64,000 bases of DNA from a virus (IMGVR_UViG_3300014502_000005:1-64000), one strand, 5' to 3'; positions 2,650 through 64,000 are shown, numbered from the stretch's first letter. Numbers and translations are program-made. Notes: generated by a model not told the origin, from the sequence alone.

Positions 2650-2778
2650 AGTTTAGTTTTTTAGTTTGCTATAATAAAAGTACAATAATCTATTTTAAAA
2701 AAGAATGACTTTTGTCATGTTTTACAGCATTATTTTAAATAAAGTGTATGTTATAAAACATACACTTTATTAATTACT

Positions 2779-3201: not shown

Positions 3202-3214
3202 TTTCTTTAGTTTT

Positions 3215-3418: not shown

Positions 3419-3442
3419 AATTTTTAATTTAATGATTAATAA

Positions 3443-3613: not shown

Positions 3614-3621
3614 AATTGTAG

Positions 3622-3822
3622 TTATTTAATTACATAACCATTATAAGTAAATTTTTCAACTGCAAAGCCAGCCCTGGTTATTTCACTAATAAATAGTTCC
3701 TCTTGCATAGACGCTATTTCATTCTCTAGTTTATCTACTGATTCAGCAGAACAACCCTCTAAATCGAATTGGTTTAAAATAAACTGAGCTATTTCTTTTT
3801 TTGTGTAAAGTTGAGTTCCCAT
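3622..3822 (-). CDS. Hypothetical protein
   Basis: 66 aa acidic ORF, first of the leftward cluster. Confidence 0.65.
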   Translation of the reverse strand: MGTQLYTKKEIAQFILNQFDLEGCSAESVDKLENEIASMQEELFISEITRAGFAVEKFTYNGYVIK

Positions 3823-4001
3823 GATTTCTATCGTTAGATTGTTTATATAAATATACGGAGTATTATAAAATATTGTACCCTAAAAATGGTGATATTCATC
3901 ACTAGTACTAGGTGATATAGATCACCTTTTGACATGACAAAAATCATGTTTTATGTTAAAATCTTGTTAATAACTTGTAATTCAGGTATGATTAAAATGA
4001 G

Positions 4002-4009
4002 TATATTTG
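4002..4009 (+). promoter_or_regulatory. Bacteroidota -7 promoter element TATATTTG
   Basis: TAnnTTTG 13 nt before the ATG at 4023. Confidence 0.65.
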
Positions 4010-4022
4010 TAATATAAAATAT

Positions 4023-4787
4023 ATGATTATGAAGACAAGTGTTGTAATGAAAAGTACTGACAGGCTATTATTTGGGACTGTAATTAGGCAAGAAACTAAG
4101 ACCGGAATGCTTAATATTTCCGATTTAGAAGCTATTGCGGCTAAAAGAAATGCTTTAAAAGATTATTCAATAAAGCATATTAGTGAATTAATTTCAAGAA
4201 AAGAAAATCTTGAACGTATTTTTTATATTATTAAAAAACAAGATATTATAAACGTAGACCTGTCTACTTTTATAGGTAATGTTGAAAATAAGGGTATTAC
4301 AACTACATTAAAATCATTAGGTATATGGAGAACATCTGGCGCAAGACACACTAAGACATCATGGGCCAATCCTTATATATGGATGCTTTTAGCATTAGAA
4401 ATGAGCCCAGAAATATATGGAGAAGCTGTTGTATGGCTAAGCGATCAATTAATAGTAAATCGTATTGAAGCTGGGAATATGTATAAAGGATTAACAGGAT
4501 CAATATCTAAATTTAAGGATGTTGATTACATCAAACTCGCAAAAGCTTTAAACTATATTGTATTTAATAGGCACGAGGCGGGTATTCGTAATTCAGCATC
4601 AATAAAAGAGCTAAAGGAACTTGAGCAATTAGAAAGGCAAATGGCGTTTTCGATTGATTTTGGATATATTAAAACTTTTGACCAGCTTATTTTGGACTTA
4701 CGTAAAATATGGAATGATAAATGGAATAACCATAAGTATTTATTGCAAAAGAATGATAAGTCGGGAATGCTAAAACATGCTCTTTAA
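4023..4787 (+). CDS. KilA-N-like DNA-binding/regulatory protein
   Basis: IRQETKTGMLNISDL and GARHTKTSWANPYIW motifs; C-terminal helical GIRNSA...EL..LE region typical of Bacteroidota KilA-N proteins. Confidence 0.65.
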   Translation: MIMKTSVVMKSTDRLLFGTVIRQETKTGMLNISDLEAIAAKRNALKDYSIKHISELISRKENLERIFYIIKKQDIINVDLSTFIGNVENKGITTTLKSLGIWRTSGARHTKTSWANPYIWMLLALEMSPEIYGEAVVWLSDQLIVNRIEAGNMYKGLTGSISKFKDVDYIKLAKALNYIVFNRHEAGIRNSASIKELKELEQLERQMAFSIDFGYIKTFDQLILDLRKIWNDKWNNHKYLLQKNDKSGMLKHAL

Positions 4788-5403
4788 CATATTAACAAGG
4801 AAATATTATCCACCAATGGTAGGCAAGTTTTAAAATATCGTCTTGTAGGTATGTTAAAAAACATGTTTTAGTATAAAAGAGTCAAAAATAATTTGTATAT
4901 TTGTATGACAAACAATAGGGTATCACAAATTGTGATCTTTAAATAAGAAGCCAGGGATAAAGTTAAGGCAATAGAAAGTAAAAAGGATTAAAGATAAAAC
5001 TAGGCAATAAGTAAAGTAAGGGACAAACAAAAGGGCGGCCCGGGAAGACAATAAAAGATATAGACATCTTATATTATGAAGCTAAAATAACTCAAATTAC
5101 CTTTATACAATAAGACATATAGACAACATACAAACTTCAATTAAAAATATCCTTTCCTTAACATGCTAAATAACATATTATATAAAGAACCTGTGCAAAA
5201 AATAAAAAAGTTGCACACTTTTGTTGCGCAAATTTGCACAAATATAATCCATAGTTAACGTAATAAACATACATCAAATACACAGGAAAGAGTAATAACT
5301 AGGAATAGGTATCAGAAAGTACTCTCAAATTAAAAGTACTTTGAAATTCAAAGTGGATTGTATAAAGATTTGGGGGTTAATTGACATCTAATCCCTCGTT
5401 CAA

Positions 5404-5598
5404 TCAGTCTTTGGCGAGCAGCTTTAACTCAAATCCAACCTTATCAGCGTATTTACAAGCCAATTCTAATGACATTTGACGCTTGCCAGTCTCATATCTA
5501 TGTAATGTAGCTACTGTAATCCCAAGGTGCTGGGCCATTACTGTTTGAGATATATAACTCATCTTTCTTTCTTGAGTAAGCTTATTTATTATATTCAT
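5404..5598 (-). CDS. XRE-family helix-turn-helix regulator
   Basis: ISQTVMAQHLGITVATLHRYETGKRQMS HTH_3 signature; own TACATTTG promoter at 5615-5622. Confidence 0.85.
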   Translation of the reverse strand: MNIINKLTQERKMSYISQTVMAQHLGITVATLHRYETGKRQMSLELACKYADKVGFELKLLAKD

Positions 5599-5694
5599 AT
5601 ATATGTATTTTATACAAATGTACTAAAAATCCCCGAATAATAGGTACAAACGTACTAACCTATCTTTCATAATACTAATTAGGTGGCAATGTAA

Positions 5695-5730
5695 AACAAA
5701 AAACCCTGGCGAGCTTCGCAGCAGACCAGG
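5695..5730 (-). terminator. Intrinsic terminator
   Basis: CCCTGG...CCAGGG stem followed by a T-run on the minus strand. Confidence 0.65.
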
Positions 5731-5758
5731 GATAACAACCTCTTTATGAAAAATCTTT

Positions 5759-5848
5759 CTATGAAAAAACAACTAACAACAATGTTGAAACTATGCCAAT
5801 CAATGAGAGCACGAATGCTTCTGCTTTTTGTAATGTTAAATTTTTCAT
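5759..5848 (-). CDS. 29-aa single-TM peptide MKNLTLQKAEAFVLSLIGIVSTLLLVVFS, not in ORF track
   Basis: ATG-TAG frame between a TATCTTTA promoter-like element and a terminator. Confidence 0.55.
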   Translation of the reverse strand: MKNLTLQKAEAFVLSLIGIVSTLLLVVFS

Positions 5849-6230
5849 GATGTATAATATTAAATGGTTACTTAAAGATAACCATATCATAGGTAATGTG
5901 CAAGTATTTATACATATATTATCATTCCAAAAACATGTTGTTTAACATATCCTAGAGTAAAACATCATGGGCAATCGGTCATGAGTGTTCCAAATATCGC
6001 CTTGTAGACATGCTAAACAACATGTTTTGGTATTAATATTGACAACTATACCTTAAAATATATGTTGAACAACATGTTTTTATTTCATTTCGACAACTTA
6101 TCGCTTTCGCTTTGATCTTTGATGAAGGTTGGTTGAATTGGTTTGTTTATATATATATGTGAAAATTAAGTTGTTGACGGGGTGGGGTTCGGCTTTTGTT
6201 GATTTGATATTCGTTTGATGCCCCTTGAAG

Positions 6231-6515
6231 TTAATGAGTAACCCCCAACTTAGACAAACACTCGATATATGTATTGTATAACTCGTATGGTATTATACCT
6301 ATAGAACAGCCTTCATTTTTGCATCCATCAACATCACACCAGCCAAAGTATGGTTCATATTCTTGTTCTTTTTTTGGGTTAGTCAAAATATTTGGCTTAA
6401 TAAAAGTATCTAACACACTATTGCAGTTGATAAGCAACTCGATTATTTCTTTTTTTGAGAACTTCATATACATTTTAATTTTCTGATCGTGGGTTAGTTC
6501 TACTATTTGTATCAT
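6231..6515 (-). CDS. Hypothetical protein
   Basis: 94 aa ORF. Confidence 0.6.
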   Translation of the reverse strand: MIQIVELTHDQKIKMYMKFSKKEIIELLINCNSVLDTFIKPNILTNPKKEQEYEPYFGWCDVDGCKNEGCSIGIIPYELYNTYIECLSKLGVTH

Positions 6516-6736
6516 AGTCCTTTTAGTTTTAAGTATTCTTCTATAGTTACTGGAAGTTTTTTTAATCTCAAAAATGAGTCTGTACGAAATCCTTTTTTGG
6601 TTCCGAATTTATAGGCTTCTTGTATTTCTGATTTTATAAGTTCTTCTATCTTCTTAGTTTGACATTCTGGGGGAAGGCTTACTATTGATATTATTTGGTT
6701 GACAATGCTTTGGTTGTTTCTGGTAAGTCCTCCCAT
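6512..6736 (-). CDS. Hypothetical protein
   Basis: 74 aa ORF. Confidence 0.6.
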   Translation of the reverse strand: MGGLTRNNQSIVNQIISIVSLPPECQTKKIEELIKSEIQEAYKFGTKKGFRTDSFLRLKKLPVTIEEYLKLKGL

Positions 6737-6921
6737 ATATTTGTTAGTTTTTGGTTTTTGTATTTTATGTTTTTATTGTAAATAGATTTTGGTAGGGTGC
6801 AGAAGCCTATCCCGTCTCTTTCTTTTATTTTGAAAGTTACGTGATTGGCATCGTCTCTGTTAAGAACTTTTTTGTTCCCGAACCGATATGCCACCAGCTT
6901 TATGTCCGGCGTTTGTTTCAC
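6691..6921 (-). CDS. Hypothetical protein
   Basis: 76 aa ORF; TATCTTTG promoter at 6953-6960. Confidence 0.55.
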   Translation of the reverse strand: MKQTPDIKLVAYRFGNKKVLNRDDANHVTFKIKERDGIGFCTLPKSIYNKNIKYKNQKLTNIWEDLPETTKALSTK

Positions 6922-6968
6922 TTTTGTAGTTCATATATTGTATATTACAGTGCAAAGATAAGTAAAAA

Positions 6969-7205
6969 TTATTTAATTGGATCACTTTCTTTTAAAAACA
7001 TTTCAAATAGCTCCTCAATACTTTTTTCTTTCTGATCTAATTCAGGCAACATACTCTTTACCCAGCCATATCCGGTATAAAACCAATTATTTTGAAGCCA
7101 TTCACTAAACTCAAATCCATTTATCCAAATTTTTCTAGTTAAACTACTTTCAAATACTGGGAAAACTTTAGTAGCTACTTTTTCTATCTCTGATTTTAGT
7201 ATCAT
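6969..7205 (-). CDS. Hypothetical protein
   Basis: 78 aa ORF. Confidence 0.6.
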   Translation of the reverse strand: MILKSEIEKVATKVFPVFESSLTRKIWINGFEFSEWLQNNWFYTGYGWVKSMLPELDQKEKSIEELFEMFLKESDPIK

Positions 7206-7271
7206 ATTATTGTATTTTGCATTTAAAAAACCGACCGGTCTTCACAGAAGGATCGGCACAAACCAACAAAT

Positions 7272-7442
7272 CTAACTCTTATATTTAATTATGAAGAACA
7301 GCCCTATTCTGAATTTTAACCAGTAAAATCCTATATCCTTGTAATTGCCTAGCATCTTATCTAACAGTATAGTTGGTAAGATATAGAACTGATATCGATG
7401 CCAATCACAATAGAACACCACATCTTCAATCGTGTACTTCAT
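7272..7442 (-). CDS. Small hypothetical protein (56 aa, MKYTIEDVVFYCDWHRYQF...), not in ORF track
   Basis: ATG-TAG frame followed by a terminator-like hairpin at ~7225-7256. Confidence 0.55.
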   Translation of the reverse strand: MKYTIEDVVFYCDWHRYQFYILPTILLDKMLGNYKDIGFYWLKFRIGLFFIIKYKS

Positions 7443-7692
7443 GGTCTTTTTTTATTTTATTGCACATTTCAATATTTAACTTATAAAACTCACTTTTATT
7501 TATCCCTATCCTTTCGGTTACTTCTTCTATGTTACATATGAATGGCCTATTGTCGTATACTGAACAAAGGTTATCATCTGTCAATTTCTCGCATTTCCCG
7601 GTCTCATCAATGATATATGGAAAGTTATTTACTTTTATGTCTTTTAATATCTTACAACATAGCCCACATTTAGAACAAGGAAATTCAGTCAT
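7426..7692 (-). CDS. YkgJ-family cysteine-cluster (Zn/Fe-chelating) protein
   Basis: CSKCGLCC...C...C.VY..RP..C pattern. Confidence 0.8.
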   Translation of the reverse strand: MTEFPCSKCGLCCKILKDIKVNNFPYIIDETGKCEKLTDDNLCSVYDNRPFICNIEEVTERIGINKSEFYKLNIEMCNKIKKDHEVHD

Positions 7693-7928
7693 CGTTTTAA
7701 AATTTTATATTCTATTTTGCTTATCTTTTTAGAATATCTTTCCATCATCCAAGATTCCCACTCTTCAAACTCAGCCCAACTTTCAAATACCTGGTCTGTT
7801 TCTTTTACTTTTCCGTTCTTGTAATATATAACTCCTACTAACTTTATTCTAGTGAAGAAATGTATCGCATAAAGTATAGATACGAAAATTATCAGTATGG
7901 CTATAATTATTTCGATGAATAGTTTCAT
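7689..7928 (-). CDS. Membrane-anchored hypothetical protein
   Basis: N-terminal hydrophobic helix. Confidence 0.6.
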   Translation of the reverse strand: MKLFIEIIIAILIIFVSILYAIHFFTRIKLVGVIYYKNGKVKETDQVFESWAEFEEWESWMMERYSKKISKIEYKILKR

Positions 7929-7931
7929 AAG

Positions 7932-8153
7932 TTACCGTTTTAAGATTAGGATATATTTCTTACCTTTTACCGGGGCTACTATTCTTTTATACATCTCCAA
8001 GTACCGTGAGATTAATTTTGTGGCCTTAGAAATTTTACCCTGGTATACGACTTCAAATTCTTCTATTGTTGTGAAAGCATCCAGTAAAAACTTTTTCTTA
8101 CCGTTCATATTATTGAACCCATCAATCCAAATGTTGCCATTAATGTTAATCAT
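7932..8153 (-). CDS. Hypothetical protein
   Basis: 73 aa ORF. Confidence 0.55.
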   Translation of the reverse strand: MININGNIWIDGFNNMNGKKKFLLDAFTTIEEFEVVYQGKISKATKLISRYLEMYKRIVAPVKGKKYILILKR

Positions 8154-8171
8154 AATTTCTCGGTTTTAAGT

Positions 8172-8699
8172 TTATAAAATATATTTCTCTGCTAATTTAT
8201 AGAAATTAATCCTTTCTGCCAATCCATTATACCCTCCATTTATTATTCGTGTTATTCCTCGTATGTCGTCAATATCTGCAAGTTTATTTAAATCTTTTAA
8301 CCTCCAGAACCAACAAGCTGATTCAACTGCATACTTTGGTTGTTTTAATAATTCGGGATGATTAACACAATCTATGTTAAAATCGTTGTACAATCTTTCG
8401 TAGTTAAACCTACCGGTTATCTGTATTAAGCCTCTGCCTTTAAATTTCTTTCCGTCTCCCGGGTATATATTCCCTAAATCCTTTCTTCCTTCATACGCTT
8501 CTCCTGAAGCTATCTCTTCTACGTACTGGAATGACCCACTTTCTTGCGCTACCTGAGCGATAAAATGGCGAACCCTAAGCAGTGTATCTATATGATATTT
8601 AGGCATTAATTCATTCAAAAATGGAATATAGTTAGCCAGGTTAATCTTATTGGCGTATATGCAAACCTTTTTTAAAATTTCAACTGTTAATGCGTTCAT
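8172..8699 (-). CDS. GH19 (chitinase-like) endolysin
   Basis: FIAQVAQESG, YEGRKDLGN, FKGRGLIQITGRFNY and INGGYNGL motifs. Confidence 0.92.
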   Translation of the reverse strand: MNALTVEILKKVCIYANKINLANYIPFLNELMPKYHIDTLLRVRHFIAQVAQESGSFQYVEEIASGEAYEGRKDLGNIYPGDGKKFKGRGLIQITGRFNYERLYNDFNIDCVNHPELLKQPKYAVESACWFWRLKDLNKLADIDDIRGITRIINGGYNGLAERINFYKLAEKYIL

Positions 8700-8923
8700 G
8701 TTGTTAATAATTCGTAAGCGGTTACTTTAGCTTTGTCGTGATCTCCGAATACGATAAAACATCTGTCATATTCTGTAGCACAATCGTCCTTAAAACAAGG
8801 GGTTCTTTTGAAAAGGAATTCAATATTTTCTTTTCTTATTTTGCCATTATTAATAGGTTCGTGCCCTGTAATAACACGAAAAGATATATGTAAAAATCTT
8901 CTCGTTCTCCTACTTAATTTCAT
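8696..8923 (-). CDS. Hypothetical protein
   Basis: 75 aa ORF; TATTTTTG promoter at 8952-8959. Confidence 0.6.
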   Translation of the reverse strand: MKLSRRTRRFLHISFRVITGHEPINNGKIRKENIEFLFKRTPCFKDDCATEYDRCFIVFGDHDKAKVTAYELLTT

Positions 8924-9020
8924 ATCCCGTATTTTTTATGAATCCTATTTACAAAAATAGTGTCGTCATTATCATGATGTAAAAACGACATGTTAAAATC
9001 TTTTTTCACTTCTTCAACGC

Positions 9021-9063
9021 AGTGGACTATGCGAATACCTTTTTAATATTCGCATAGTCCACT
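9021..9063. repeat. Perfect 17-bp inverted repeat AGTGGACTATGCGAATA/TATTCGCATAGTCCACT
   Basis: Directly visible; no U-tract on either side. Confidence 0.8.
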
Positions 9064-9106
9064 TGCATAATACAGTTAGCTTCTCGATTTTTACATTTTA
9101 TACATA

Positions 9107-9658
9107 TCATTTTCCATCAATTGCATCCCAAATAAATCCTACTATCTCAGGATTAAACACTTCGCCAATCGCTTTTTTAAAACTAGCGAGTTCCTCAACA
9201 GTAAAATCTTGATCCTGGCTTTCTAATTTCATGGCCAGTTTATAAACACCGTACTTTTCTTCTGGCGTTTTTTTGTCTATACCGGAATTAAGTATTGCAA
9301 ATTTAATAGCTTTTTTAATTGTAAGATTATCTGTAGCCGATTCTCCTTTGATAGTTTTACCATCTAAGCTCAATACTTCTGCATTCAAATCTAATTTGCC
9401 CATATTTTCGTTATTTAAAATTAATGATTTTTTATTTTTACTTCCTTTTGTGCGTGACATAATTATCGTGTTTATGTGATTATTAACCTTATATGGTATA
9501 TCCTCCAGTGACTTTAAATATCCTTCTTCATTTGCTATATAAAGTTGGGATACTATTTCTTCTTCATCTTCTGTTAGTTCTATTCCTGTATGATATTTTA
9601 TAAGTACAGAACTTAATATATTATGAATATGGTCAGTTAAAGTTATTAGTTCGTTCAT
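9107..9658 (-). CDS. Hypothetical protein with internal RTKGSKNKK (AT-hook-like) motif
   Basis: 183 aa ORF; may have an internal start (MSRTKG.. or MGKLDL..). Confidence 0.6.
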   Translation of the reverse strand: MNELITLTDHIHNILSSVLIKYHTGIELTEDEEEIVSQLYIANEEGYLKSLEDIPYKVNNHINTIIMSRTKGSKNKKSLILNNENMGKLDLNAEVLSLDGKTIKGESATDNLTIKKAIKFAILNSGIDKKTPEEKYGVYKLAMKLESQDQDFTVEELASFKKAIGEVFNPEIVGFIWDAIDGK

Positions 9659-9667
9659 ATAATTAAT

Positions 9668-10111
9668 TTAATATCCCCAAACCAGCATCGCAGCGTCTCT
9701 TTGATCTTGATTTGTCTCTTTCATCATTCCGGTTATTTGTCTGAAATATTTTTGATCAACTTTAGAAGCAATTGGTTTTCTTAATTCATAAGGAATATTA
9801 AGATATTGCAACATTTCTTCTATTTTTCGCCCTGTCTCATGATTAGATCCAGTGTTTTTACCAATTCTAGAAGCTACTCCAACTCCTTTTTTTTCATTAT
9901 GCCAATTTGACTTTTTATTTAACCATCCGGCTTCCAAAATTACTTTCATCCCATATTTAGGATTAAATGATTCGTTTTCTTTTTTTAACCAAGATAGGTA
10001 ATCGAAAATTTGAAAAAATGACATATTAGATACTTCTAATATATTTTTTCCTTTTTCGTAAAAAGCTATACCTGATTTATGTATATCTGGATCTATTCCT
10101 ATAAGTATCAT
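9668..10111 (-). CDS. RuvC-like Holliday junction resolvase
   Basis: N-terminal ILIGIDPD...SG, VILE, C-terminal QDQRDAAML acidic catalytic residues. Confidence 0.75.
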   Translation of the reverse strand: MILIGIDPDIHKSGIAFYEKGKNILEVSNMSFFQIFDYLSWLKKENESFNPKYGMKVILEAGWLNKKSNWHNEKKGVGVASRIGKNTGSNHETGRKIEEMLQYLNIPYELRKPIASKVDQKYFRQITGMMKETNQDQRDAAMLVWGY

Positions 10112-10291
10112 ACTTTTAGTTTTAAAAGTAACCTGGGAATCATGCTAAGAACCATTTAATATTATCCCAGGTTACTTATTTTCCCCTTTCGGGTCGGCTG
10201 AGAATTTCTTCTCAAGAATTTTGTCAGCCAATTAATTTTTGTATCTCTTGTTTCCGCTACAAACATACAACATATTTTTGGTAAAAACAAT

Positions 10292-10335
10292 ATGTTATAA
10301 AACATAATAATATTAAATAATTTTACTTATATTTG
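10292..10335 (+). promoter_or_regulatory. ATGTT-N4-AACAT palindrome plus TATATTTG promoter of the rightward operon; divergent TATGTTTG at 10260-10267
   Basis: Motifs sit at the strand switch. Confidence 0.65.
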
Positions 10336-10362
10336 TAGCGTTAATTCTTCATACCATATACC

Positions 10363-10617
10363 ATGATAAACGAAGAACTGCTAATTAAGAGTTTGCAAAA
10401 CGGACTTGAACAATGCCTAAAGATCAAATTACTACATGAATATGCTAACTTTTTTCTAACAGAAGGTTTTGAAAAAGGATACCAAGACCACGAAAAAACA
10501 ATGAGGATATATTATGTAAGACGAAGGCAGGGAGTAATAAAAAGAGTTAACGAATTATTAGACGAAGTTCGGGATAATATCTGGAAACGTAAAGAAGAAT
10601 TAGAAAAACTAAAATGA
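10363..10617 (+). CDS. Hypothetical protein
   Basis: 84 aa ORF. Confidence 0.65.
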   Translation: MINEELLIKSLQNGLEQCLKIKLLHEYANFFLTEGFEKGYQDHEKTMRIYYVRRRQGVIKRVNELLDEVRDNIWKRKEELEKLK

Positions 10618-10856
10618 GTAAAGTAATATATAAAGTTGATTTTGATTATATAAGAACATCGACAAGTATCTTGTACGAGACTTTTATAGTTGACGAATCT
10701 TACCAAGATGAAGACACGGGAGAGAATCATAAGGTTATTTCTATTGAAGAAGTATTTTCTTATGGAGAGCGAACTATAGTAGTTTATTTTGATGATGGAA
10801 TTGAATTAGAAATATTTGACATATTTCATACATACAAGAAACTTTTATTGAACTAA
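10614..10856 (+). CDS. Hypothetical acidic protein
   Basis: 80 aa ORF with ATGA coupling. Confidence 0.65.
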   Translation: MSKVIYKVDFDYIRTSTSILYETFIVDESYQDEDTGENHKVISIEEVFSYGERTIVVYFDDGIELEIFDIFHTYKKLLLN

Positions 10857-11077
10857 TGAAAAAAGTTATTCAGACAAAGGCATGCAAAGGAAAGCTCCAT
10901 AATGGAGAATTGGTCCCTTTAAATGAATTTGTTAAACATAGAAATTACAAAGATGGATATTCTAATATCTGTAAGAAATGCAATAATTTAAAATATAACG
11001 TCACACCTAAAGAAAGAATTTTAAAGGAACTTGATATTATAAACGAGAAACTAGACTATTTAATCGGAGACAAGTAA
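10856..11077 (+). CDS. Small zinc-finger protein
   Basis: C...H...PLNEF...KDGYSNICKKC, similar to the N-terminal finger of HNH/EndoVII proteins. Confidence 0.6.
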   Translation: MKKVIQTKACKGKLHNGELVPLNEFVKHRNYKDGYSNICKKCNNLKYNVTPKERILKELDIINEKLDYLIGDK

Positions 11078-57793: not shown

Positions 57794-57870
57794 TTTCAAA
57801 ACAATCTTTAAAAACTTTCCGATTTTAGTGTATCAATTGACTTATAATCAATTCAAATTTAGTACTTACG

Positions 57871-57891
57871 TATATATAGTAGTTATGTGGC
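57871..57891 (+). other. Array-proximal attI-like site TATATATAGTA-GTTATGTGGC
   Basis: Same motif starts the second array at 62601; no hairpin. Confidence 0.55.
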
Positions 57892-57892
57892 A

Positions 57893-58357
57893 TTAAAAGA
57901 GCCACGCTTTGACAATTTCGTATAGGTTTAATTTTAAGTGATACGAATTAATTATCACGAAAACTCCAAATACAAGTCCGATAACTGAATTTACCCAATG
58001 TAATGCCGTATATGCTGGGCTAAATTTAAACAGCTTACTTATTGGAGCTATTGCAATAAAATTAAAAGCAATTATCGCAATAAAAGCAACCCAATTAAAA
58101 GTTAATAAACCTGCAAACATCCATAAGGTAAATAGTAAACTTGGAAGTCCTCGACTAATTAAAACGTCTTTGTAATCTTGCGGATATTCATCCCACTTTT
58201 TGCCTTTGTTTTGCTTATTAAGCTCTTTAAATTTTTTAGATTTTTCAGTGTATTCAACTGGGCTTATTAGCCAAAGAACTTCATGTATTATAAAGCAAAT
58301 TCCGATAAAATAAAAAATGTGTTTCATTGTTATAATTTTTAAGTTATTAATATTCAA
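57893..58357 (-). CDS. Multi-TM membrane protein in gene cassette 1 (likely start ATG 58327)
   Basis: Hydrophobic; flanked by GTTATGTGGC / GCCACATAAC. Confidence 0.75.
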   Translation of the reverse strand: MNINNLKIITMKHIFYFIGICFIIHEVLWLISPVEYTEKSKKFKELNKQNKGKKWDEYPQDYKDVLISRGLPSLLFTLWMFAGLLTFNWVAFIAIIAFNFIAIAPISKLFKFSPAYTALHWVNSVIGLVFGVFVIINSYHLKLNLYEIVKAWLF

Positions 58358-58365
58358 TAATTAAC

Positions 58366-58504
58366 GCCACATAACCCGCGGTCATACGCAAAACGGGGTT
58401 TCCGTTCTCGTTGGATAAGGTATCTGTTTGCAAAGTGTCGTTCATCGTATTTAGTTTATCTGTTAATAATCCCCGTTCAGCGCATACCGCCACCGTTATA
58501 GGGC
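58366..58504 (+). repeat. attC-like recombination site
   Basis: AAC-CC-GCGGT[C]ATACGCAAAACGGGG ... CCCCGTTCAGCGCATACCGC-CACC-GTT; extrahelical G on the minus strand. Confidence 0.8.
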
Positions 58505-58699
58505 ATTTAAAACAAGCTTCGGTTCAAGTTCAGTAAATGCCTCGACTGTTATACCTTCTTTTAATTGCCATTCAGCATCATCATAGTATTCAATAGAATA
58601 CACATAATTGTTATAAACTTTAATTATGCACATATAATGAATACCATTGTAATTAGGCTCATTTTCTGGATATTTTTTAAAAACTTCATTTATATTCAT
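58496..58699 (-). CDS. DUF551-like small protein in gene cassette 2
   Basis: KKYPENEP...W....V.AF pattern; stop TAA within GCCCTATAAC. Confidence 0.65.
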   Translation of the reverse strand: MNINEVFKKYPENEPNYNGIHYMCIIKVYNNYVYSIEYYDDAEWQLKEGITVEAFTELEPKLVLNAL

Positions 58700-58715
58700 A
58701 ACTTAAAAATAAACA

Positions 58716-58754
58716 CCCTATAACAATAGGTCATAAAACAGCAGGGCGTATTTG
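58716..58754 (+). repeat. Truncated attC-like site (left arm only)
   Basis: CCCTATAAC-AA-TAGGTCATAAAAC; complementary to cassette start GTTATAGGG at 58495. Confidence 0.6.
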
Positions 58755-59216
58755 CTATTCGTAACCTTTTGCATCTAATTGATGTAGTCTTTCTCGATAT
58801 TTGTTTTTTAAATATCCTTTCTTTTGAAAAAACAAATCCCAATTTGCTGTATATTTATGGTCTTCATTATAAGCTTCTCGATGATCAGAATCCCCATGGT
58901 CTAATAGCCTATGTTCCTCTGGAGACATAAGCATGATGTTTTCTTCTTCTATTATAAATAGAGGGTAATTTTTTTTATCTAGTACATGCGCGAACAGCCA
59001 AATAAAAAAAGGTGTATTGTAGTATTTATCTAAAGGCCCTCCGCTTAATTCTGACACGTGAGGCCTAGTATTCCATATTTGGTCAAATAATGCTAATTGG
59101 CCTGTATTCTTAGGAAGGATGACTTTTTTAATTTTAGGCTTCCATTTGTAATGAAACTTACAAATACCATGACTGAAAACAGGATTGCTACAATTTGGAT
59201 GAGTGCAAATTTTCAT
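58755..59216 (-). CDS. HNH-like nuclease with N-terminal zinc finger
   Basis: CTHPNC...C..H; FAHVL...ENI...EEH..D. Confidence 0.6.
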   Translation of the reverse strand: MKICTHPNCSNPVFSHGICKFHYKWKPKIKKVILPKNTGQLALFDQIWNTRPHVSELSGGPLDKYYNTPFFIWLFAHVLDKKNYPLFIIEEENIMLMSPEEHRLLDHGDSDHREAYNEDHKYTANWDLFFQKKGYLKNKYRERLHQLDAKGYE

Positions 59217-59542
59217 TTAATAGCTGGTCTATGATAACAACTATAGGTAGGCATTAAATCTGATCCTAATCTTATTTCATGATATAAGATAGGGCTTATA
59301 TTAGTAATTGTGATGTACTTATCTTTATCTATATTTAATATCCCCCACAAAATACCGTCTGAAGAGATTAAAAAATCGGATATATGTATTGGAGCATCTA
59401 GTTTTATTTTTAATGTATATATCCATTTTACTTCCGGAATTATTTTGAATATTTTACAAACTATACGTTGAATGAAAGTCAAGTTTAATACCTTAACTAT
59501 ACCTTCGGTATTTTGATAAGTTATTTTAAAAATGTTTTCCAT
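59213..59542 (-). CDS. Hypothetical protein
   Basis: 109 aa ORF. Confidence 0.6.
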   Translation of the reverse strand: MENIFKITYQNTEGIVKVLNLTFIQRIVCKIFKIIPEVKWIYTLKIKLDAPIHISDFLISSDGILWGILNIDKDKYITITNISPILYHEIRLGSDLMPTYSCYHRPAIK

Positions 59543-59548
59543 AAATAT

Positions 59549-59839
59549 TTAATTTTTATTTATTGGTTTAAAATTATCAATGTTAATTTTATTTATGTTA
59601 ATCAAATCGTCACTAATCAGTCCTTTTCTAAGTAAAAATTTAACTTTCCATTTAACAACATCTCTTTTAGCTTTACTTAATTTACTTGTCTTATTTTGAA
59701 TCAATTTATATTCCTGAATGACATCGAGAACGTCTTTGTCTATTTCTTGTTTTTGTTCTATTTGTTCCTGTTTTGGTATCAACCAAAATACGGCGAATAT
59801 TACGCCCATTGCCGTTATTAATAGTAGAAACGTCGTCAT
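59549..59839 (-). CDS. Membrane-anchored hypothetical protein
   Basis: N-terminal TM; EYKLIQNKTSKLS..KR motif. Confidence 0.65.
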   Translation of the reverse strand: MTTFLLLITAMGVIFAVFWLIPKQEQIEQKQEIDKDVLDVIQEYKLIQNKTSKLSKAKRDVVKWKVKFLLRKGLISDDLININKINIDNFKPINKN

Positions 59840-59841
59840 AT

Positions 59842-60024
59842 TTATTTTAATAAAATGTTAACTCCTCGTTTTTTTGGGATTACTTTTCCTAGTACTTCTT
59901 CTATTTCTTCGTTTGTAACACATTCGTGCTTGTTACAAAGTCCAACTTTATAATTATTAGTATCTCTAATAATAGTGGCTTTACTTAAGCAATAAGCACA
60001 AAGTTCCTTAGTTATTTCTAGCAT
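59842..60024 (-). CDS. Small Cys/His (zinc-finger-like) protein
   Basis: CAYC...LCNKH. Confidence 0.55.
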   Translation of the reverse strand: MLEITKELCAYCLSKATIIRDTNNYKVGLCNKHECVTNEEIEEVLGKVIPKKRGVNILLK

Positions 60025-60245
60025 TTAAATAAATCTTGTATAGTTACTTTTTCGCTTTCGGGAGCTATCTCCCATTCTAAAAAGTCTTTTTCAGTTACTT
60101 CTACAGGGCAAACAGGACTTAGCCCGTATCTTTTAGTGCTTAGGATAACGCCTGTTTCGAAAAACCCTTTAAATATTCCTATTTTGCCTGTTTTAGGGTC
60201 AATAACCTTGGCGTTATAGGGGTCTTTTAAATCTTTTATTTGCAT
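60018..60245 (-). CDS. Hypothetical protein
   Basis: 75 aa; TAACTTTG promoter at 60257-60264. Confidence 0.6.
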   Translation of the reverse strand: MQIKDLKDPYNAKVIDPKTGKIGIFKGFFETGVILSTKRYGLSPVCPVEVTEKDFLEWEIAPESEKVTIQDLFKC

Positions 60246-60313
60246 TGATTTTTATTCAAAGTTAAATAGTATGTGGGTAATAATAAAATAATAAGATATG
60301 TTGTGCAACACTT

Positions 60314-61597
60314 TTAGAATTTAAGTCCTATTTTTTCTGATTTATCTAGTTCTTCTTGCACTTTATCTAGTATTCTTGTATTAAACACAAGATCATGTCC
60401 TTTAATTTGTTCTACGCATTTAATTATCTTTTTATAACAATCTTCTAGCGAATCTCCAGCAGCGACTATGTCTAACGCTTCTGAAGATTGAGAAGGCTGA
60501 GGAATTAGGTAATACGTTCCTTTAGATTTCATTCCAAAACGAAACTTAACGTTATTTCTTATTTCTTCTGGGAAGTAAATGGGCAAAAAATTTTCTCTGA
60601 GGAAATCTGAATTACCAATTAGGATCACTCCATATTCATGAGTAAATTCAGGTTGAATTAAAATACCTTCTGCCCCAGACCAAATTATTTGGGCTAAGTT
60701 TTTTATCATTATTAATTGTAATGACAAGGGGGGTGCTCCGGCCCTACAGGTCTGATCTATAACGTAAGGGACTTTCTTTTTATCTATCCTAATTTCATTA
60801 GAATAAAAGTTACAATATTGTTTTTCCTTAAAATACCAAGACAAATTATCGGTACATAATTTTATTGGTTTTGGCAATTTAGCGTATTCAAATACTTTTG
60901 CTGCATAACATTGGTCCTTAATCTCGATACCGCTCAATACCTTGTCAGGTATTTGGCCGTCTATAATAATAGTATCTATACCAGTTTCTACAATACAATC
61001 AACAGGAGTTTCTACAATAAATTCTGTTATCTCTTTTATGGCCCCTAGCTCATTTTCAAGATGAGTTAATAACGGTTCTGATAGTTTATAGGTATCGTGC
61101 TTAAAACTCTCAAACAAACCTCTCCAATGGGATATTTTAATATAAAGTTTATCATGTGATTTTAAGTATTCTTTTAATTTAGTTATGCCTTTTATTTTGA
61201 TGGTTTTATTTACAGGCATATTGCTTTTGGTCATTATTCTTTTAGAATCATATCGATCTAATTCTAGCCATTGGCCTTCGCCAGAACCAAACACCCGCTT
61301 ACCCATAGATCGAAGCAATCTTTCTATGTCCGAAAAGTAAAGTTCGGGGAAAATGAAAATATCAACTTTATCGAAATTGTAGTCTGAATTTTTATCTGAA
61401 GTAGAAAATAAGTAATCAATAGAATTTATTTCTTCAAATCCTACGCCAGATAATTCAGGAAATCTATCGGGGAACCCTCCGTAATTCCAAGGTGTAAAAT
61501 AGTAAACTTTTTGGAATAATTTAGATAACGTGATAGCTAATTCTACGAACAGGCCGCAATCACAAACAACGGCTATTTTATTTTTTAAATTTTCCAT
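60314..61597 (-). CDS. ATP-grasp enzyme (PurD/GARS-like fold)
   Basis: VFGSG....LELDR...K, LYIK....RG..ESF, FIVE, GIE.KD, IDQTCR.G.P. Confidence 0.75.
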   Translation of the reverse strand: MENLKNKIAVVCDCGLFVELAITLSKLFQKVYYFTPWNYGGFPDRFPELSGVGFEEINSIDYLFSTSDKNSDYNFDKVDIFIFPELYFSDIERLLRSMGKRVFGSGEGQWLELDRYDSKRIMTKSNMPVNKTIKIKGITKLKEYLKSHDKLYIKISHWRGLFESFKHDTYKLSEPLLTHLENELGAIKEITEFIVETPVDCIVETGIDTIIIDGQIPDKVLSGIEIKDQCYAAKVFEYAKLPKPIKLCTDNLSWYFKEKQYCNFYSNEIRIDKKKVPYVIDQTCRAGAPPLSLQLIMIKNLAQIIWSGAEGILIQPEFTHEYGVILIGNSDFLRENFLPIYFPEEIRNNVKFRFGMKSKGTYYLIPQPSQSSEALDIVAAGDSLEDCYKKIIKCVEQIKGHDLVFNTRILDKVQEELDKSEKIGLKF

Positions 61598-61977
61598 TAT
61601 ATTTCATAATTTTCGTAATAATCACTCCATTCCAATCCCATCTCATAACATAATTGCCTTTCTATATTTTCAGCAAAACGATGTTCTCGACGATATATGC
61701 AATCTGGCTCATTACCTGCATCGTCTGCCTTTCCGCCAACTTCTTGAACCTTTCTATCAAACGCATCTATGTCCTCCTCTTTAATCCCTCTCATATTTGT
61801 CAAGTGTTGTTCTATCATCTCGTGAAGTGCAATTAGCCAAGCATGATCATAAGAGGCTTCATCTTTTAAGTATGCCTTAATTATTATAACATCTTTATTT
61901 ACAAAATAGTAGTCTCCAATGCCGCCATTTCTTATCTCATTAGGATTATTTGTAAATTGTATACGTATTTCTTTCAT
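61597..61977 (-). CDS. Small putative metallohydrolase (HExxE...H motif)
   Basis: GDY...LIALHEMIE...Y.REH.FAE.IER; coupled to the ATP-grasp gene. Confidence 0.6.
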   Translation of the reverse strand: MKEIRIQFTNNPNEIRNGGIGDYYFVNKDVIIIKAYLKDEASYDHAWLIALHEMIEQHLTNMRGIKEEDIDAFDRKVQEVGGKADDAGNEPDCIYRREHRFAENIERQLCYEMGLEWSDYYENYEI

Positions 61978-61996
61978 CTAGCAAAGGTATGTATTT

Positions 61997-62515
61997 TTAT
62001 ATTGGATTTATGCACCCAAAAGTTTCTATCATTATCCTGTCTATAGACCAATGCAAAGTCTGGCCATCTTTATGTAAGTGTAAAAGGTTATTAGTAGGTG
62101 TTTTTTTAGATCCTTTCATTAAGATTGTTTTGCCTGATTTCCTTTTTATCATTCTCGTCATACTTCTTACGTTTCTTAGTGTAGAAACTTGATAATATCC
62201 TTCATAGCCAGGAATATCTTTCCAAGTTTCCTTTAGGATATTTTTTAAGTTTTCTATGTCTTCCGAATCCTTAGCATATAAGCTTGTCATTGCAATAACC
62301 TTTTTTATGGCTGCGTTTACAGAAGTTCGAGTTCTTCCTGCTAATTTTAGCCCTATCTCATCGTTTGACCCAACCTTAAACGCCTTACATAAAAACATTG
62401 CTTTTTGTCGGGCCTGGACTATTTCTCCTTTTTTTGTGGGAATGTTCAGCTCCCCAGGAACCATATTAAAGTATTTTTCAACTTCATTTTGTATTTTATC
62501 TATAGTTACTATCAT
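61997..62515 (-). CDS. DnaA C-terminal-like HTH fused to a NUMOD4 motif
   Basis: TIDKIQNEV..YF...IVQARQ.AMFL...IG...GR..TSV..A; ETWKDIPGYEGYYQVS. Confidence 0.75.
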   Translation of the reverse strand: MIVTIDKIQNEVEKYFNMVPGELNIPTKKGEIVQARQKAMFLCKAFKVGSNDEIGLKLAGRTRTSVNAAIKKVIAMTSLYAKDSEDIENLKNILKETWKDIPGYEGYYQVSTLRNVRSMTRMIKRKSGKTILMKGSKKTPTNNLLHLHKDGQTLHWSIDRIMIETFGCINPI

Positions 62516-62600
62516 AAATTAATATTTAAGTTTTTGATCACAAATCTTTAAAATTTAATCGTGCACAATATTAATATTTAAATAATTATATGTAAAATTT

Positions 62601-62624
62601 TATATATAATAGTTATGTGTAACC
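62601..62624 (+). other. Array-proximal attI-like site TATATATAATA-GTTATGTGTAACC
   Basis: Matches the 57871 site. Confidence 0.55.
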
Positions 62625-63023
62625 TTAAACGGCTACCGTGGATAGTCTTTCCTTAATCTGATTTGAGTTCAATATTTCGTCAAATCTAATAATAGAATCA
62701 ATCATCCATTCATAACCACAAAAACCAGCAGAGTTTTTTCTTCTTTTATTGGCTTCTTTGGCATCAACTTGTTCAATCCTAACATTTGCACCCCAACCAT
62801 CACCAAAGTTATAATAATGGCTTTTACTTGGTGGAGTATTACCAATTTCTCGTCTGGTAAAAAAGCCTTCATAAATCGGACTTGTTTTAGCATCTTCCAT
62901 TATTTTGTCAGCAGTTTTATTGTCGAACTTTCTAATAACAAAATATTTGCGTTCTGCGCCTGTCCATTTACCATTCCAACTACCTACATTTGGCATCGTT
63001 AATTCAAAAGATAATGTTTTCAT
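62625..63023 (-). CDS. Hypothetical protein in gene cassette 3
   Basis: MPNVGSWNGKWTG...GDGWGA...GFCGYEWM; flanked by GTTATGTGTAACC / GGCTACACATAAC. Confidence 0.8.
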   Translation of the reverse strand: MKTLSFELTMPNVGSWNGKWTGAERKYFVIRKFDNKTADKIMEDAKTSPIYEGFFTRREIGNTPPSKSHYYNFGDGWGANVRIEQVDAKEANKRRKNSAGFCGYEWMIDSIIRFDEILNSNQIKERLSTVAV

Positions 63024-63059
63024 TTTTATAGTTTTAAGTTATTGATAATCATAATAAAA

Positions 63060-63201
63060 GGCTACACATAACACGCAATATAGTGCATGTGGGCTGTATC
63101 GGTTATTGAAAGTTTCTACATTCTATTATCGTTTGTGGTGGTTTGATAGGTCGGTGCTATTAATCCCACACGACACCATATTGCCACCGTTAGCGGTTAT
63201 T
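63060..63201 (+). repeat. attC-like recombination site
   Basis: AAC-AC-GCAATATAGTGCATGTGGG ... CCCACACGACACCATATTGC-CACC-GTT. Confidence 0.8.
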
Positions 63202-63561
63202 AAGCCAGCCATACACCAACCTGCGAAATTCTGCATCTGATTGTGTGCATCGTAATTTTTGAACATCTAATTTAGATAAGTCTGGACAATAAGCTGTTAT
63301 TAATGCTTTCCAGCAATCCCTATAAGTTTGAGCCTTTGCATGAAATTTTATAGAATGTTGTTCCAATTTAGCTGTATCTCCAAGTTCATCGTATTTTCGT
63401 TGAAGTCCCTGCCAACTATTAATAAGTTCTTCAACTGCTTTTATTCGCAATTGCTTATTTAGTTCATTTATTTGCTCAGAATAACTAAGTTCAGACGTAT
63501 CACAATTAACATCCGCCTTAATAGGCGTGTACCTTGTATTTTTAAGTTTGTGCGTTCCCAT
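63190..63561 (-). CDS. Hypothetical protein in gene cassette 4
   Basis: Stop TAA within AACCGCTAAC. Confidence 0.7.
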   Translation of the reverse strand: MGTHKLKNTRYTPIKADVNCDTSELSYSEQINELNKQLRIKAVEELINSWQGLQRKYDELGDTAKLEQHSIKFHAKAQTYRDCWKALITAYCPDLSKLDVQKLRCTQSDAEFRRLVYGWLNNR

Positions 63562-63569
63562 AAATTTAA

Positions 63570-63884
63570 TTATTTAAAATATTCACACGTTTTACAAAAG
63601 TTTTTACTCTTAACAAAGCGACTGCACGCAGATTTATATGGCCAATTACAGATTTTTATTTTAGTAATATCTCCATTAAACCTCCAAATCTGCTGCATGT
63701 GGTCAAACCAAATCTGTATATTATCAACAGAATAATTGTTTTTTACGCAATATTCATCTATTTCACTTATAGTTGGTTCTTTATCAGTCATGCCTTCAAT
63801 CCACATCTCATGCGGTTGAGTTCTATATGTTACATTTTCATCTTGTATATTCATAATATTTTGATTTAAAATAAATAATAACAA
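63570..63884 (-). CDS. Hypothetical Cys-rich-tail protein in gene cassette 4
   Basis: C-terminal C...C...CKTC; likely start at MNIQDEN. Confidence 0.65.
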   Translation of the reverse strand: MLLFILNQNIMNIQDENVTYRTQPHEMWIEGMTDKEPTISEIDEYCVKNNYSVDNIQIWFDHMQQIWRFNGDITKIKICNWPYKSACSRFVKSKNFCKTCEYFK

Positions 63885-63980
63885 CCGCTAACACCGTATA
63901 TAAAACATGGCTTGACAGGTTCGTGCTTACTTGAAACATTCGAGCAAAGCCACGTTTCATATACGAACCGTTAGTTGCCA
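63880..63980 (+). repeat. attC-like recombination site (short loop)
   Basis: AAC-AC-CGTATATAAAACATGGCTT ... AAGCCACGTTTCATATACG-AACC-GTT. Confidence 0.8.
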
Positions 63981-64000
63981 TTTAAAGAAACGTATTCATC

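Follow-up and report, generated by a model that had tools for sequence, protein, structure and literature searches.

The region from 57.8 to 76.2 kb of this 76.2-kb (76,236-bp) genome of a Bacteroidota phage most probably constitutes an integron-like platform, encoded by the phage itself, for the capture of gene cassettes, a reading to which we give a probability of roughly 0.8. The window (the whole 64,000-nucleotide stretch analysed) comprises bases 1-64000 of this genome. We class the system as integron-like and not as a canonical IntI integron because its recombinase, of Xer-like type, is missing the IntI-specific insertion. Clusters of attC sites in phages are already known (Qi et al. 2023); we found no paper in the literature describing a self-contained, I2-less integron-like system. 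An earlier note on the window had described units running from GTT to AAC, each with its own pair of matching ends. All the motifs it quoted lie where it had placed them, its fifth unit, starting at 63970, closes past the end of the window, and the system is larger than it had claimed.

When all 76,236 bp of the genome were scanned by script, 10 strong AAC...GTT hairpin sites (score ≥12.5) emerged, all between 58.3 and 75.5 kb; outside this interval there were only weaker matches, in unrelated sequence. Ten units have mutually complementary ends and are confined to 58-76 kb, with the hairpin on the high-coordinate side of every one. An attI-like site, ..TTTTATATATAATAG/TTA (slash, putative crossover), is present in four copies in the genome and adjoins the first unit of each array. 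Two occurrences of the pattern TATATARTAGTTATGTG are present in the window, where 0.05 would be expected.

Table 1. Features of the cassette region, in whole-stretch numbering continued along the genome past 64000
Feature	Position	Strand	Details
Partial hairpin of the same site family, opposite orientation, cut by contig start	1-114	+	model R1 29 bits, E = 0.00015, model positions 31-141
attI-like site A (..ACGTATATATAGTAG/TTA)	57866-57885	+	low-coordinate end of array A; more diverged than B-D (four-site alignment)
Cassette U1	57882-58375	-	complementary ends GTTATGTGGC (57882) / GCCACATAAC (58366); 144-aa ORF, 58327 to 57893
attC-like hairpin H1	58373-58497	-	AAC-CC-stem...stem-CACC-GTT; scan score 12.5; model R1 81 bits
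Cassette U2	58495-58724	-	ends GTTATAGGG (58495) / CCCTATAAC (58716); 67-aa ORF
Degenerate or short terminal site closing array A	58722-58827	-	weak model match 58734-58827, E = 0.34; short stem CAATAG/CTATTG
attI-like site B (AAATTTTATATATAATAG/TTA) with fossil stub of integrase 5' coding end	62520-62614	-
Cassette U3	62612-63072	-	ends GTTATGTGTAACC (62612) / GGCTACACATAAC (63060); 132-aa ORF
attC-like hairpin H2	63070-63191	-	model score 122 bits
Cassette U4	63189-63892	-	ends GTTAGCGGTTATT (63189) / AACAACCGCTAAC (63880); ORFs of 123 and 94 aa
attC-like hairpin H3, short form	63890-63972	-	repeat pair I4; z = -3.3
Cassette U5, start in window	63970-64000	-	extends to 64484; end GGAAACTAAC (64475-64484); 153-aa ORF
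Site H4	64482-64603		beyond window
Xer/IntI-like tyrosine recombinase	66709-67536	-	275 aa
attI-like site C	67552 (G/TT)		beside recombinase
Sites H5-H7	67831-68896		H6 at 68435-68517
Sites H8-H9	72731-73529
attI-like site D	75000
Site H10	75394-75514

Units have a median length of 479 nt and mostly carry one ORF each. The U1 product is probably a membrane protein, with only a weak Colicin_V match in Pfam; the U2 ORF takes its stop codon from the TAA of the box; the U3 protein belongs to a family widespread in phages, and another locus (L037) carries its gene at 85% nucleotide identity without flanking sites; neither U4 ORF has a match in Pfam or PHROG. In a repeat search the end pair of U1 (I23) extends to 15 nt at 93%, and that of U3 (I24) likewise spans 15 nt at 93%. 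This complementarity holds well beyond our phage: across 30 phage loci, at least six complementary bases outside the GTT/AAC core join 46 of 87 adjacent site pairs but only 126 of 13,602 other pairs (0.9%; Fisher p = 4e-66).

The three hairpins in the window do share the fixed geometry that had been described, AAC-N2-stem..stem-NACC-GTT. They belong to a family of imperfect inverted repeats of attC type, about 85 or about 122 nt long, bracketed by ..TAAC and GTTA.. boxes that stand 46-130 nt apart, and AAC and GTT are conserved at 100% in 117 sites. Structure is conserved over sequence. In an alignment of 120 sites fitted to the site model, 93.1% of pair cells are paired, compared with 67% in shuffles, and 452 cells are changed on both sides, compared with 148 in shuffles; the observed value was reached by none of 500 shuffles of this model-fitted alignment, and all nine pairs of the inner helix covary. 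Bulged bases keep to no single arm or position across sites. All 10 sites of our phage fold better on the minus strand (at H1, -15.2 versus -12.5 kcal/mol for the plus strand), and the same asymmetry is seen at 18 of 21 sites in other phages. In a chromosomal array of Flavobacterium, where the genes occupy the opposite strand, it is again the same site strand that folds better (four of four sites), so the asymmetry tracks the polarity of the site and not the direction of transcription.

Natural recombination is visible in cultured relatives. Ten isolates of Polaribacter phage Freya, whose integrase is homologous to our phage recombinase (39% identity), are near-identical over the compared region (98.7-100% for isolates 1, 2, 5, 6, 8, 9 and 10) and differ only in blocks of small genes just upstream of the integrase. 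Each of the six indel junctions coincides with an AAC or CAAC that both sides have in common; microhomology amounts to 3-4 nt between unrelated flanks, and the junctions are thereby resolved to the AAC triplet. Four of them link the attI-proximal site to an internal one, one links two internal sites to each other, and in the last, in Freya_6, 469 bp of new units have been inserted at the position nearest attI. The integrase-proximal AAC, about 45 nt from the integrase start codon, is used in five of the six. Rather than fixed synteny, these related phages display cassette gain and loss; together with a recombinase beside an attI-like site, this supports the integron-type gene gain and shuffling proposed in the earlier note.

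In metagenome contigs of our own phage, too, branching occurs at TAAC/GTTA borders. The run X2 contig graph is interrupted where a hairpin meets GTTA, with a branch at 63186-63215 (H2); at two X2 joints only TAAC or GTTA is common and other cassettes follow the same hairpin. Joints and loose ends lie at the borders of H3, and one joint is on a hairpin's TAAC side; all these variants were read from contigs, with short sides of 23-34 nt. H3 and H6 have nearly identical cores with both flanks different, and the H8 core is common to a site of locus L106 at 92%, again with flanks differing on both sides. Hairpin cores common to differently flanked cassettes, taken with the joint at the TAAC side, are not sufficiently explained by a single crossover point.

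The earlier note had placed the integrase either elsewhere in the genome or in the host. This needs correcting: a tyrosine recombinase is encoded close by in the same genome, 2.7 kb past the end of the window, and is not supplied by the host. The protein matches Pfam PF00589 and PF13495 and keeps the active-site motifs of tyrosine recombinases. In NCBIfam it scores best with XerA_Arch ("site-specific tyrosine recombinase/integron integrase") and with the integron integrase model TIGR02249, in both cases below the cut-off (156.5 bits against 265 for TIGR02249; NF011946 scores 107 against 435). Every curated Xer model is below its cut-off as well, so the protein is not an orthologue of XerA, XerC or XerD. 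Its closest PDB matches are XerA structures (4a8e, 121 bits; 5hxy, 110 bits) and its best structural relatives are XerA and XerD; like simple Xer-type recombinases of about 270-300 aa, it consists of a core-binding (SAM-like) and a catalytic domain with active-site residues in place and no arm-binding domain. When aligned to VchIntIA (2a3v), residues 27-186 correspond to chain residues 17-180 and residues 220-274 to 262-316, leaving 33 aa between the blocks where VchIntIA has 81; the IntI-specific insertion (I2 helix), and with it the additional domain that marks IntI, is thus absent. Two papers treat this insertion as essential for IntI to recognise folded attC (PMC8138268; PMC7790495), so that recognition of a folded substrate by the phage recombinase would need another solution.

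One attI-like copy, site C, lies about 15 nt from the integrase ATG. On sequence grounds we take the other three to be duplicated copies: sites B and D, and weakly A, retain a stub of the integrase 5' end, B and C have the stretch CAAATCTTTAAAATTT in common (MAFFT alignment), and the integrase 5' ends of relatives also match at B (blastn). The conserved site and the Freya junctions suggest that insertion takes place at this integrase-adjacent position. We propose that crossover falls inside the GTT/AAC triplet, at G/TT on the plus (top) strand, which would correspond to AA/C at the 5' box of the better-folding minus (bottom) strand. With the crossover in that triplet, a cassette would run TTA-N6...gene...N6-TAAC-hairpin-G, and its ends would be complementary through having made up a single R-box stem while the cassette was an excised circle. 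Insertion of new cassettes would occur next to attI, and recombination between two sites would remove or reshuffle blocks. We infer that the phage recombinase is the catalyst, that its substrate is folded single-stranded DNA, and that free cassette circles exist.

An alternative that we regard as unlikely retains the cassette system and its recombinase but supposes that the enzyme acts on duplex DNA, with the ..TAAC and GTTA.. boxes serving as inverted binding arms of Xer/dif type and the hairpin potential being incidental or otherwise used. An enzyme resembling the duplex-acting XerA and XerD, without the I2 insertion, would fit this, as would break points on both the TAAC and GTTA sides of the hairpins. 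However, the boxes are separated by far more than any Xer core spacer, the stems covary strongly, one strand folds better whatever the gene direction, and end complementarity specific to each unit is to be expected of an R-box stem in a folded site.

The reading of the region as a dedicated capture platform, acting through folded sites, draws further on linkage. This architecture is found again in 27 or more further IMG/VR phage contigs, and in Bacteroidota chromosomes as well. Among 78 IMG/VR loci with recombinase relatives, 106 model matches (E ≤ 0.01) fall in 27 loci, and all 106 lie upstream of the recombinase gene and on its strand. The cassette ORFs of our phage are all on the bottom strand, each with its hairpin upstream, and read towards attI and the integrase; across 30 phage loci, 75 of 79 units have their longest ORF on this bottom (integrase) strand. 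The single chromosomal array that we inspected (L028) has most of its genes on the strand opposite to the phage arrangement.

These data also bear on the view that the arrays are passive cargo from a bacterial integron, recombined by a host integrase, with the phage recombinase serving only lysogeny or dimer resolution. Phages with integrase-less attC clusters (CALINs) are on record, Polaribacter phage P12002L among them (PMC9892861), homologous arrays do exist in Bacteroidota chromosomes, and Bartlau et al. interpreted the integrase of Freya as indicating a temperate lifestyle. We nevertheless consider this very improbable, given the unbroken placement of sites directly upstream of the phage recombinase, the Freya crossovers close to the integrase start codon, the gene strand that sets phage arrays apart from the L028 array, and a GC content of the array region (0.318) that equals that of the remaining phage (0.328). 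Least probable of all is that the hairpins are intergenic RNA or regulatory elements (terminators or processing sites) with indels arising by homologous or illegitimate recombination between repeats: in phages they are intergenic and on the sense strand, G.U pairs would favour folding of that strand's RNA and the loops contain conserved sequence, but no Rfam family matches them, in the Flavobacterium chromosomal array the same site strand still folds better with the genes on the other one, junction microhomology is short and always the same triplet between unrelated flanks, and an RNA function leaves end complementarity across 200-1500 nt unexplained.

The system shares much with integrons, above all with sedentary chromosomal ones that have homogeneous attC, such as the Vibrio cholerae repeats: a tyrosine recombinase gene beside an attI-like site; arrays of short, mostly one-ORF units, each followed by an imperfect palindrome bracketed by ..AAC and GTT.., whose structure is conserved while its sequence varies and of which one strand folds better; crossover at GTT/AAC with complementary cassette ends; and new units next to attI. 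As in sedentary integrons, sites are homogeneous in length within the genome (about 122 nt). It differs in its recombinase, which is devoid of the I2 insertion and falls short of curated integron-integrase cut-offs, in its four attI-like sites in one phage genome, in its boxes (N6-TAAC / GTTA-N6 as opposed to RYYYAAC / GTTRRRY), in a short, asymmetric unpaired spacer (2 and 4 nt) and in its presence on lytic-looking and jumbo phages. Whereas integron cassettes carry promoterless top-strand genes driven by Pc at the integrase/attI end, the phage genes are on the bottom strand, and therefore no Pc-type promoter at attI can drive them.

A folded hairpin imitating a duplex site can serve as substrate for Xer-type enzymes that have no I2 helix, as the CTX-phi attP does for XerCD. 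CTX-phi and other Xer-exploiting elements resemble our system in the type of enzyme; they differ in that a whole replicon enters the chromosomal dif site by means of host enzymes, with no arrays, cassette-specific R boxes or attI beside a self-encoded recombinase. The pdif modules of Acinetobacter plasmids are accessory-gene modules between inverted Xer-type sites that are shuffled among replicons. Discrete accessory-gene modules are common to both, but pdif modules use 28-bp duplex sites and host XerC/XerD, and have no long hairpins, unit-specific complementary ends or dedicated recombinase.

Phage CALINs are a published parallel, with attC-type sites between small genes in phages of marine Flavobacteriia (PMC9892861). 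P12002L_attC1 has the same TAAC-GG..stem..-GTTA layout as our sites, and P12002L genes also lie on the strand opposite to the AAC..GTT reading. Those sites differ in that they were found by IntegronFinder/HattCI and tested with IntI1, and no phage integrase was linked to them. P12002L gave no match to our site model and no relative of the phage recombinase, and the tables of that study list no Freya, Danklef, Cellulophaga or Flavobacterium phage. Under the definition of a CALIN (at least two attC sites, no integron integrase nearby), IntegronFinder would probably assign our arrays to that class, as the IntI C-terminal signature is missing from the recombinase; a dedicated recombinase nonetheless adjoins them.

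We lean towards a broader reading, in which recombinases of an Xer-like family lacking the I2 helix would operate a full cassette system of integron type in Bacteroidota as well as in their phages, including jumbo phages, representing either an independent invention of the integron or a surviving pre-I2 stage. In phages, where the cassettes are reversed, it would serve as a hypervariable reserve of early accessory genes that is reshuffled in the course of single blooms, as in the Freya isolates. Since cultured relatives differ by whole cassettes cut exactly at hairpin sites, phages seem to exchange accessory genes by a route known so far mainly in bacteria.

Each GTT and AAC end motif that the earlier note had quoted was present at its position, and a repeat search extended the match in two pairs of ends to 15 nt with 93% complementarity and recovered a 19-nt stem for the third hairpin. 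We scanned the whole genome with a script for AAC-spacer-stem...stem-spacer-GTT; the ten sites that scored at least 12.5 (hairpins H1 to H10) all fall in the rightmost part of the genome, inside a block of leftward genes, and ten units with complementary ends are listed beside them. A covariance model built from these ten sites located two degenerate sites that close arrays, at ~58.73 and ~73.78 kb. The placement of bulged bases varies between sites.

Hairpin sites and complementary-end units (genome coordinates)
Feature	Position	Basis
H1	58373-58497	scan score >= 12.5
H2	63070-63191	scan score >= 12.5
H3	63890-63972	scan score >= 12.5
H4	64482-64603	scan score >= 12.5
H5	67831-67952	scan score >= 12.5
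H6	68435-68517	scan score >= 12.5
H7	68775-68896	scan score >= 12.5
H8	72731-72844	scan score >= 12.5
H9	73444-73529	scan score >= 12.5
H10	75394-75514	scan score >= 12.5
Units (n=10)	starts 57882, 58495, 62612, 63189, 63970, 67552, 67950, 68515, 73527, 75000	complementary ends

An integrase had been predicted to lie outside the window, either elsewhere in the genome or in the host. The first alternative held and the second did not: the gene is phage-encoded, a 275-aa ORF on the minus strand at 66709-67536, 2.7 kb beyond the window, with a SAM-like N-terminal domain and a tyrosine-recombinase catalytic domain. Two curated models fit it best, each with a score below its cut-off: archaeal XerA, named 'site-specific tyrosine recombinase/integron integrase', at 170 bits, and the integron-integrase subfamily at 156 bits. 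The nearest solved structures are XerA (4a8e, 5hxy), followed by the Vibrio integron integrase 2a3v. The active-site motifs GLRVSE, HLLRHS, LGHSS, and IYTHV are conserved. In the alignment with 2a3v, two conserved blocks stand 33 residues apart in the phage recombinase and 81 apart in IntI, indicating that the IntI-specific insertion (I2) is absent from the recombinase. Two papers regard this insertion of IntI as essential to integron function (PMC8138268; PMC7790495); with it absent, recognition of folded sites would need a different solution here.

About 15 nt from the recombinase start codon lies the sequence AAATTTTATATATAATAG/TTA, with further copies at 62612 and 75000 and a more diverged one at 57882; each of these attI-like copies sits at the low-coordinate end of its own array. 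Those at 62.5 and 74.9 kb keep a broken stub of ~60 nt from the 5' end of the integrase reading frame (alignment; blastn) and are, judging from their sequence, duplicated integrase-attI platforms from which the gene has since been lost. We do not take the conserved TTTTAAAGATTTG, which precedes backbone genes, for a Bacteroidota promoter: within site C, the attI-like site adjoining the recombinase gene, it is integrase coding sequence (ILKIC), so that at the attI-like sites B and D it represents a gene stub. Directly after the stub of site B begins a 172-aa ORF (61997-62515, minus strand) with a DnaA C-terminal helix-turn-helix domain and a NUMOD4 motif, which looks like a homing endonuclease; in Freya, a cultured Polaribacter phage with a homologous recombinase, an HNH endonuclease gene stands immediately after the integrase. 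Endonuclease genes may be involved in the duplication or replacement of platforms.

The hairpin lies on the high-coordinate side of every complementary-end unit, and the first unit of each array stands directly against the attI-like site, so the plus strand corresponds to the 'top' strand of integrons. Crossover would fall at G/TT in the right box of each site, and cassettes would have the layout TTA-N6...N6-TAAC-hairpin-G. The minus strand gives the better fold at 10 of 10 sites (sum -155.3 vs -127.6 kcal/mol, DNA parameters), with stem mismatches that are mostly A.C on the plus strand and G.T on the minus strand. Classical attC sites share this geometry: it is their bottom strand that folds better, and cleavage takes place in its 5' AAC box.

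In this genome the bottom strand carries every cassette ORF, and of 14 units inspected by eye, 7 take their stop codon from the TAA of the TAAC box. As the sense strand is the strand that folds, an RNA structure behind the hairpin fold was a serious rival. Rfam, however, returned zero families in 57-76 kb, and a second system decides the matter: the chromosome of Flavobacterium cellulosilyticum carries a homologous recombinase (41% identity) and, downstream of its gene, at least five sites of ~120 nt, between which lie cassettes with complementary ends such as TTAGCAAC..GTTGCTAAC and TTAGGCATT..AATGCCTAAC. Although its genes are mostly on the opposite strand, the site strand that folds better is unchanged (4 of 4 sites). 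The asymmetry therefore tracks site polarity and not transcription.

In L006 and L004, two close relatives, the same covariance model finds putative recombination sites upstream of the homologous integrase. At least 474 relatives of the recombinase were identified in IMG/VR with a profile of 13 integrases; the best 78 of these loci gave 106 model matches at E <= 0.01, in 27 loci (one of them on a 207-kb contig), and every match stood upstream of the integrase gene, on the same strand as that gene. Across 120 aligned sites, 93.1% of pair cells were paired versus 67% after shuffling, 452 cells had changed on both sides versus 148 (0 of 500 shuffles reached the observed value), and 9 of 9 pairs of the inner helix covaried, with the caveat that the alignment was fitted to the model. 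At least six complementary bases beyond the core were present in 46 of 87 adjacent site pairs versus 126 of 13,602 other pairs (p = 4e-66). In the same phage loci, the median unit measured 479 nt, site lengths clustered at 121-124 nt, and 75 of 79 units had their longest ORF on the strand of the integrase. Polaribacter phage P12002L was rejected as a member of this site family: the model found nothing, and a script scan gave only two loosely similar hairpins. Among 80 IMG/VR loci with a relative of the integrase (L117-L196), a contig end lay within 700 nt upstream of its gene in 25 and within 700 nt downstream in only 9, as would be expected if assemblies broke at a heterogeneous cassette array.

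Among isolated phages, the closest to carry this recombinase, at 39% identity, are Polaribacter phages Freya_1-10, Cellulophaga phage Ingeline, and Polaribacter phage Leef. The lengths of the Freya records span 44.0-48.9 kb, and in seven isolates, compared from the last shared gene to the integrase, the region is 98.7-100% identical except for blocks of small genes. Gain and loss of cassettes in related phages, a check named in the earlier note, is borne out by these indels, whose junctions fall on a shared AAC or CAAC in six of six cases. Freya_1, _2, _5, and _9 are missing everything from an internal xxxxAAC/hairpin border to the integrase-proximal TTGCTAAC/ACCCCTATAAC; Freya_8 is missing the segment between two internal sites; and Freya_6 is Freya_5-like with 469 bp of new units at the integrase-proximal position. 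Homologous recombination at these junctions is excluded, because the sequences flanking the triplet are unrelated. A transposon or MITE reading of the units in our phage is also out, as their terminal repeats are unit-specific and neither a transposase gene nor a target duplication was seen. The Freya paper has no word of cassettes or indels, and to its authors the integrase points to lysogeny (PMC8776804). In Danklef_1-5, phages of another species isolated on a different host strain, ~38.0-40.6 kb of MT732458 holds 38% of the Freya_10 variable region in three pieces at 97.3% identity, suggesting that phage species share cassettes with one another.

The 76,236-bp record is estimated by CheckV to be 100% complete, and IMG/VR classes its ends as 'linear'. 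The only matches to its portal-like protein come from podophages of Flavobacterium, Cellulophaga, Tenacibaculum, and Maribacter (~22% identity), and when 62.5-64 kb was compared by blastn with 50,697 phage records, no DNA similarity to isolated phages emerged; near-identical DNA is present in permafrost and peat metagenomes. We mapped Logan contigs of four permafrost or peat runs to L002, which spans genome 57001-76236 including the remaining 12 kb (genome coordinate = L002 coordinate + 57000). In the source-like run (X2), the contig graph breaks at site borders (L002 6186-6215, 6908-6973, 10947-10953, 11453-11518, and 15841-15845). One joint connects the end of cassette U1 to an H3-type hairpin via a common TAAC, another leads from an H3-type hairpin via a common GTTA into array C at its first cassette, and at two sites differing sequences follow GTTA. 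Since the contigs have short sides, this metagenome evidence is supporting and not decisive. Four joints in run X2 were set aside as not lying at site borders, one (6060->17300) with a 20-nt side and no shared letters, and three with inserted letters.

Contig 8 of run X2 (26,279 nt) extends 22.9 kb beyond the record end and contig 1 begins at about genome 22,640, which suggests that the genome is circular or permuted, with a gap of ~200 nt separating base 76,236 from base 1. At window 1-114 on the plus strand is a truncated hairpin of the cassette-site family, in opposite orientation and cut at the contig start; an inverted site at this far end of the arrays could make inversion possible. The left block of leftward genes also holds a separate family of intergenic imperfect palindromes (4774-4867 and 5932-6078; AAAAC-ATG-TTGTTTAACATAT...CATGTTTT) without sequence kinship to the cassette sites, and Rfam gave no match at E <= 0.01 in window 1-11000, a span that includes them.

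A usable Pfam or PHROG assignment was obtained for 0 of 20 cassette ORFs. The 132-aa product of cassette U3 belongs to a large phage protein family, and its gene occurs in contig L037 (85% nucleotide identity) in an ordinary, tightly packed operon with zero sites; ordinary phage genes can thus occur as cassettes. For some cassette ORFs the start seems to lie inside the hairpin upstream, in its loop or in an arm (L002 15721-15854 and 18384-18524, that is, genome 72.7 and 75.4 kb; L006 2591-2735), and hairpin loops have a conserved stretch in common (..GCACGAACCTATCAAA..AATAGAATG..). Signals that start transcription or translation of the cassette gene may reside in the loops.

The cores of H3 and H6 are alike though their flanks differ on both sides, and H8 matches a site in contig L106 at 92%; the genes neighboring these shared-core hairpins showed no homology. 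Paralogy between the H3 and H6 cassettes was looked for and none was found, so the shared core does not reflect co-transfer of a gene with its site. By analogy, core sharing resembles the homogeneous attC sites of chromosomal integrons. A single crossover point does not by itself account for it, and occasional exchange at the other box could.

Integrons are regarded as devices of bacteria, and lately also of archaea, with IntI and its I2 helix as their defining feature. Our analysis confirms the cassette-like units first observed in this genome and supports their integron-type interpretation. The system appears integron-like in its working, yet departs from IntI integrons in two defining respects: the recombinase is without the IntI-specific domain, and the cassette genes, which in IntI integrons are top-strand and Pc-driven, lie on the bottom strand. 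It is best classed as a phage-encoded integron-like system with a recombinase that lacks the I2 helix. Qi et al. 2023 described 21 phages with integrons or attC clusters and showed some of the phage attC sites to be recombined by IntI1 (PMC9892861), but their list contains none of the present family and ties no phage Xer-like integrase to sites. Phage reports to date have dealt with captured fragments, or with attC clusters that have no integrase (PMC9892861), and IntegronFinder 2.0 records a single complete integron in Bacteroidetes proper, that of Salinibacter ruber M1 (PMC9024848). Full-text literature searches in a subset of journals returned no description of the present system.

What is new is that recombinase, attI, and cassettes are all phage-encoded, that the same architecture recurs in dozens of uncultured phages, and that rearrangement is visible among cultured isolates of one enrichment campaign. 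Tools based on IntI signatures would overlook this system and with it a hidden pool of cassettes. The system is a natural test case for the evolution of folded-DNA recombination with and without the I2 helix, and is directly testable, as Polaribacter phage Freya and its host are both cultured. More generally, it offers a concrete mechanism for hypervariable early-gene regions and phage mosaicism.
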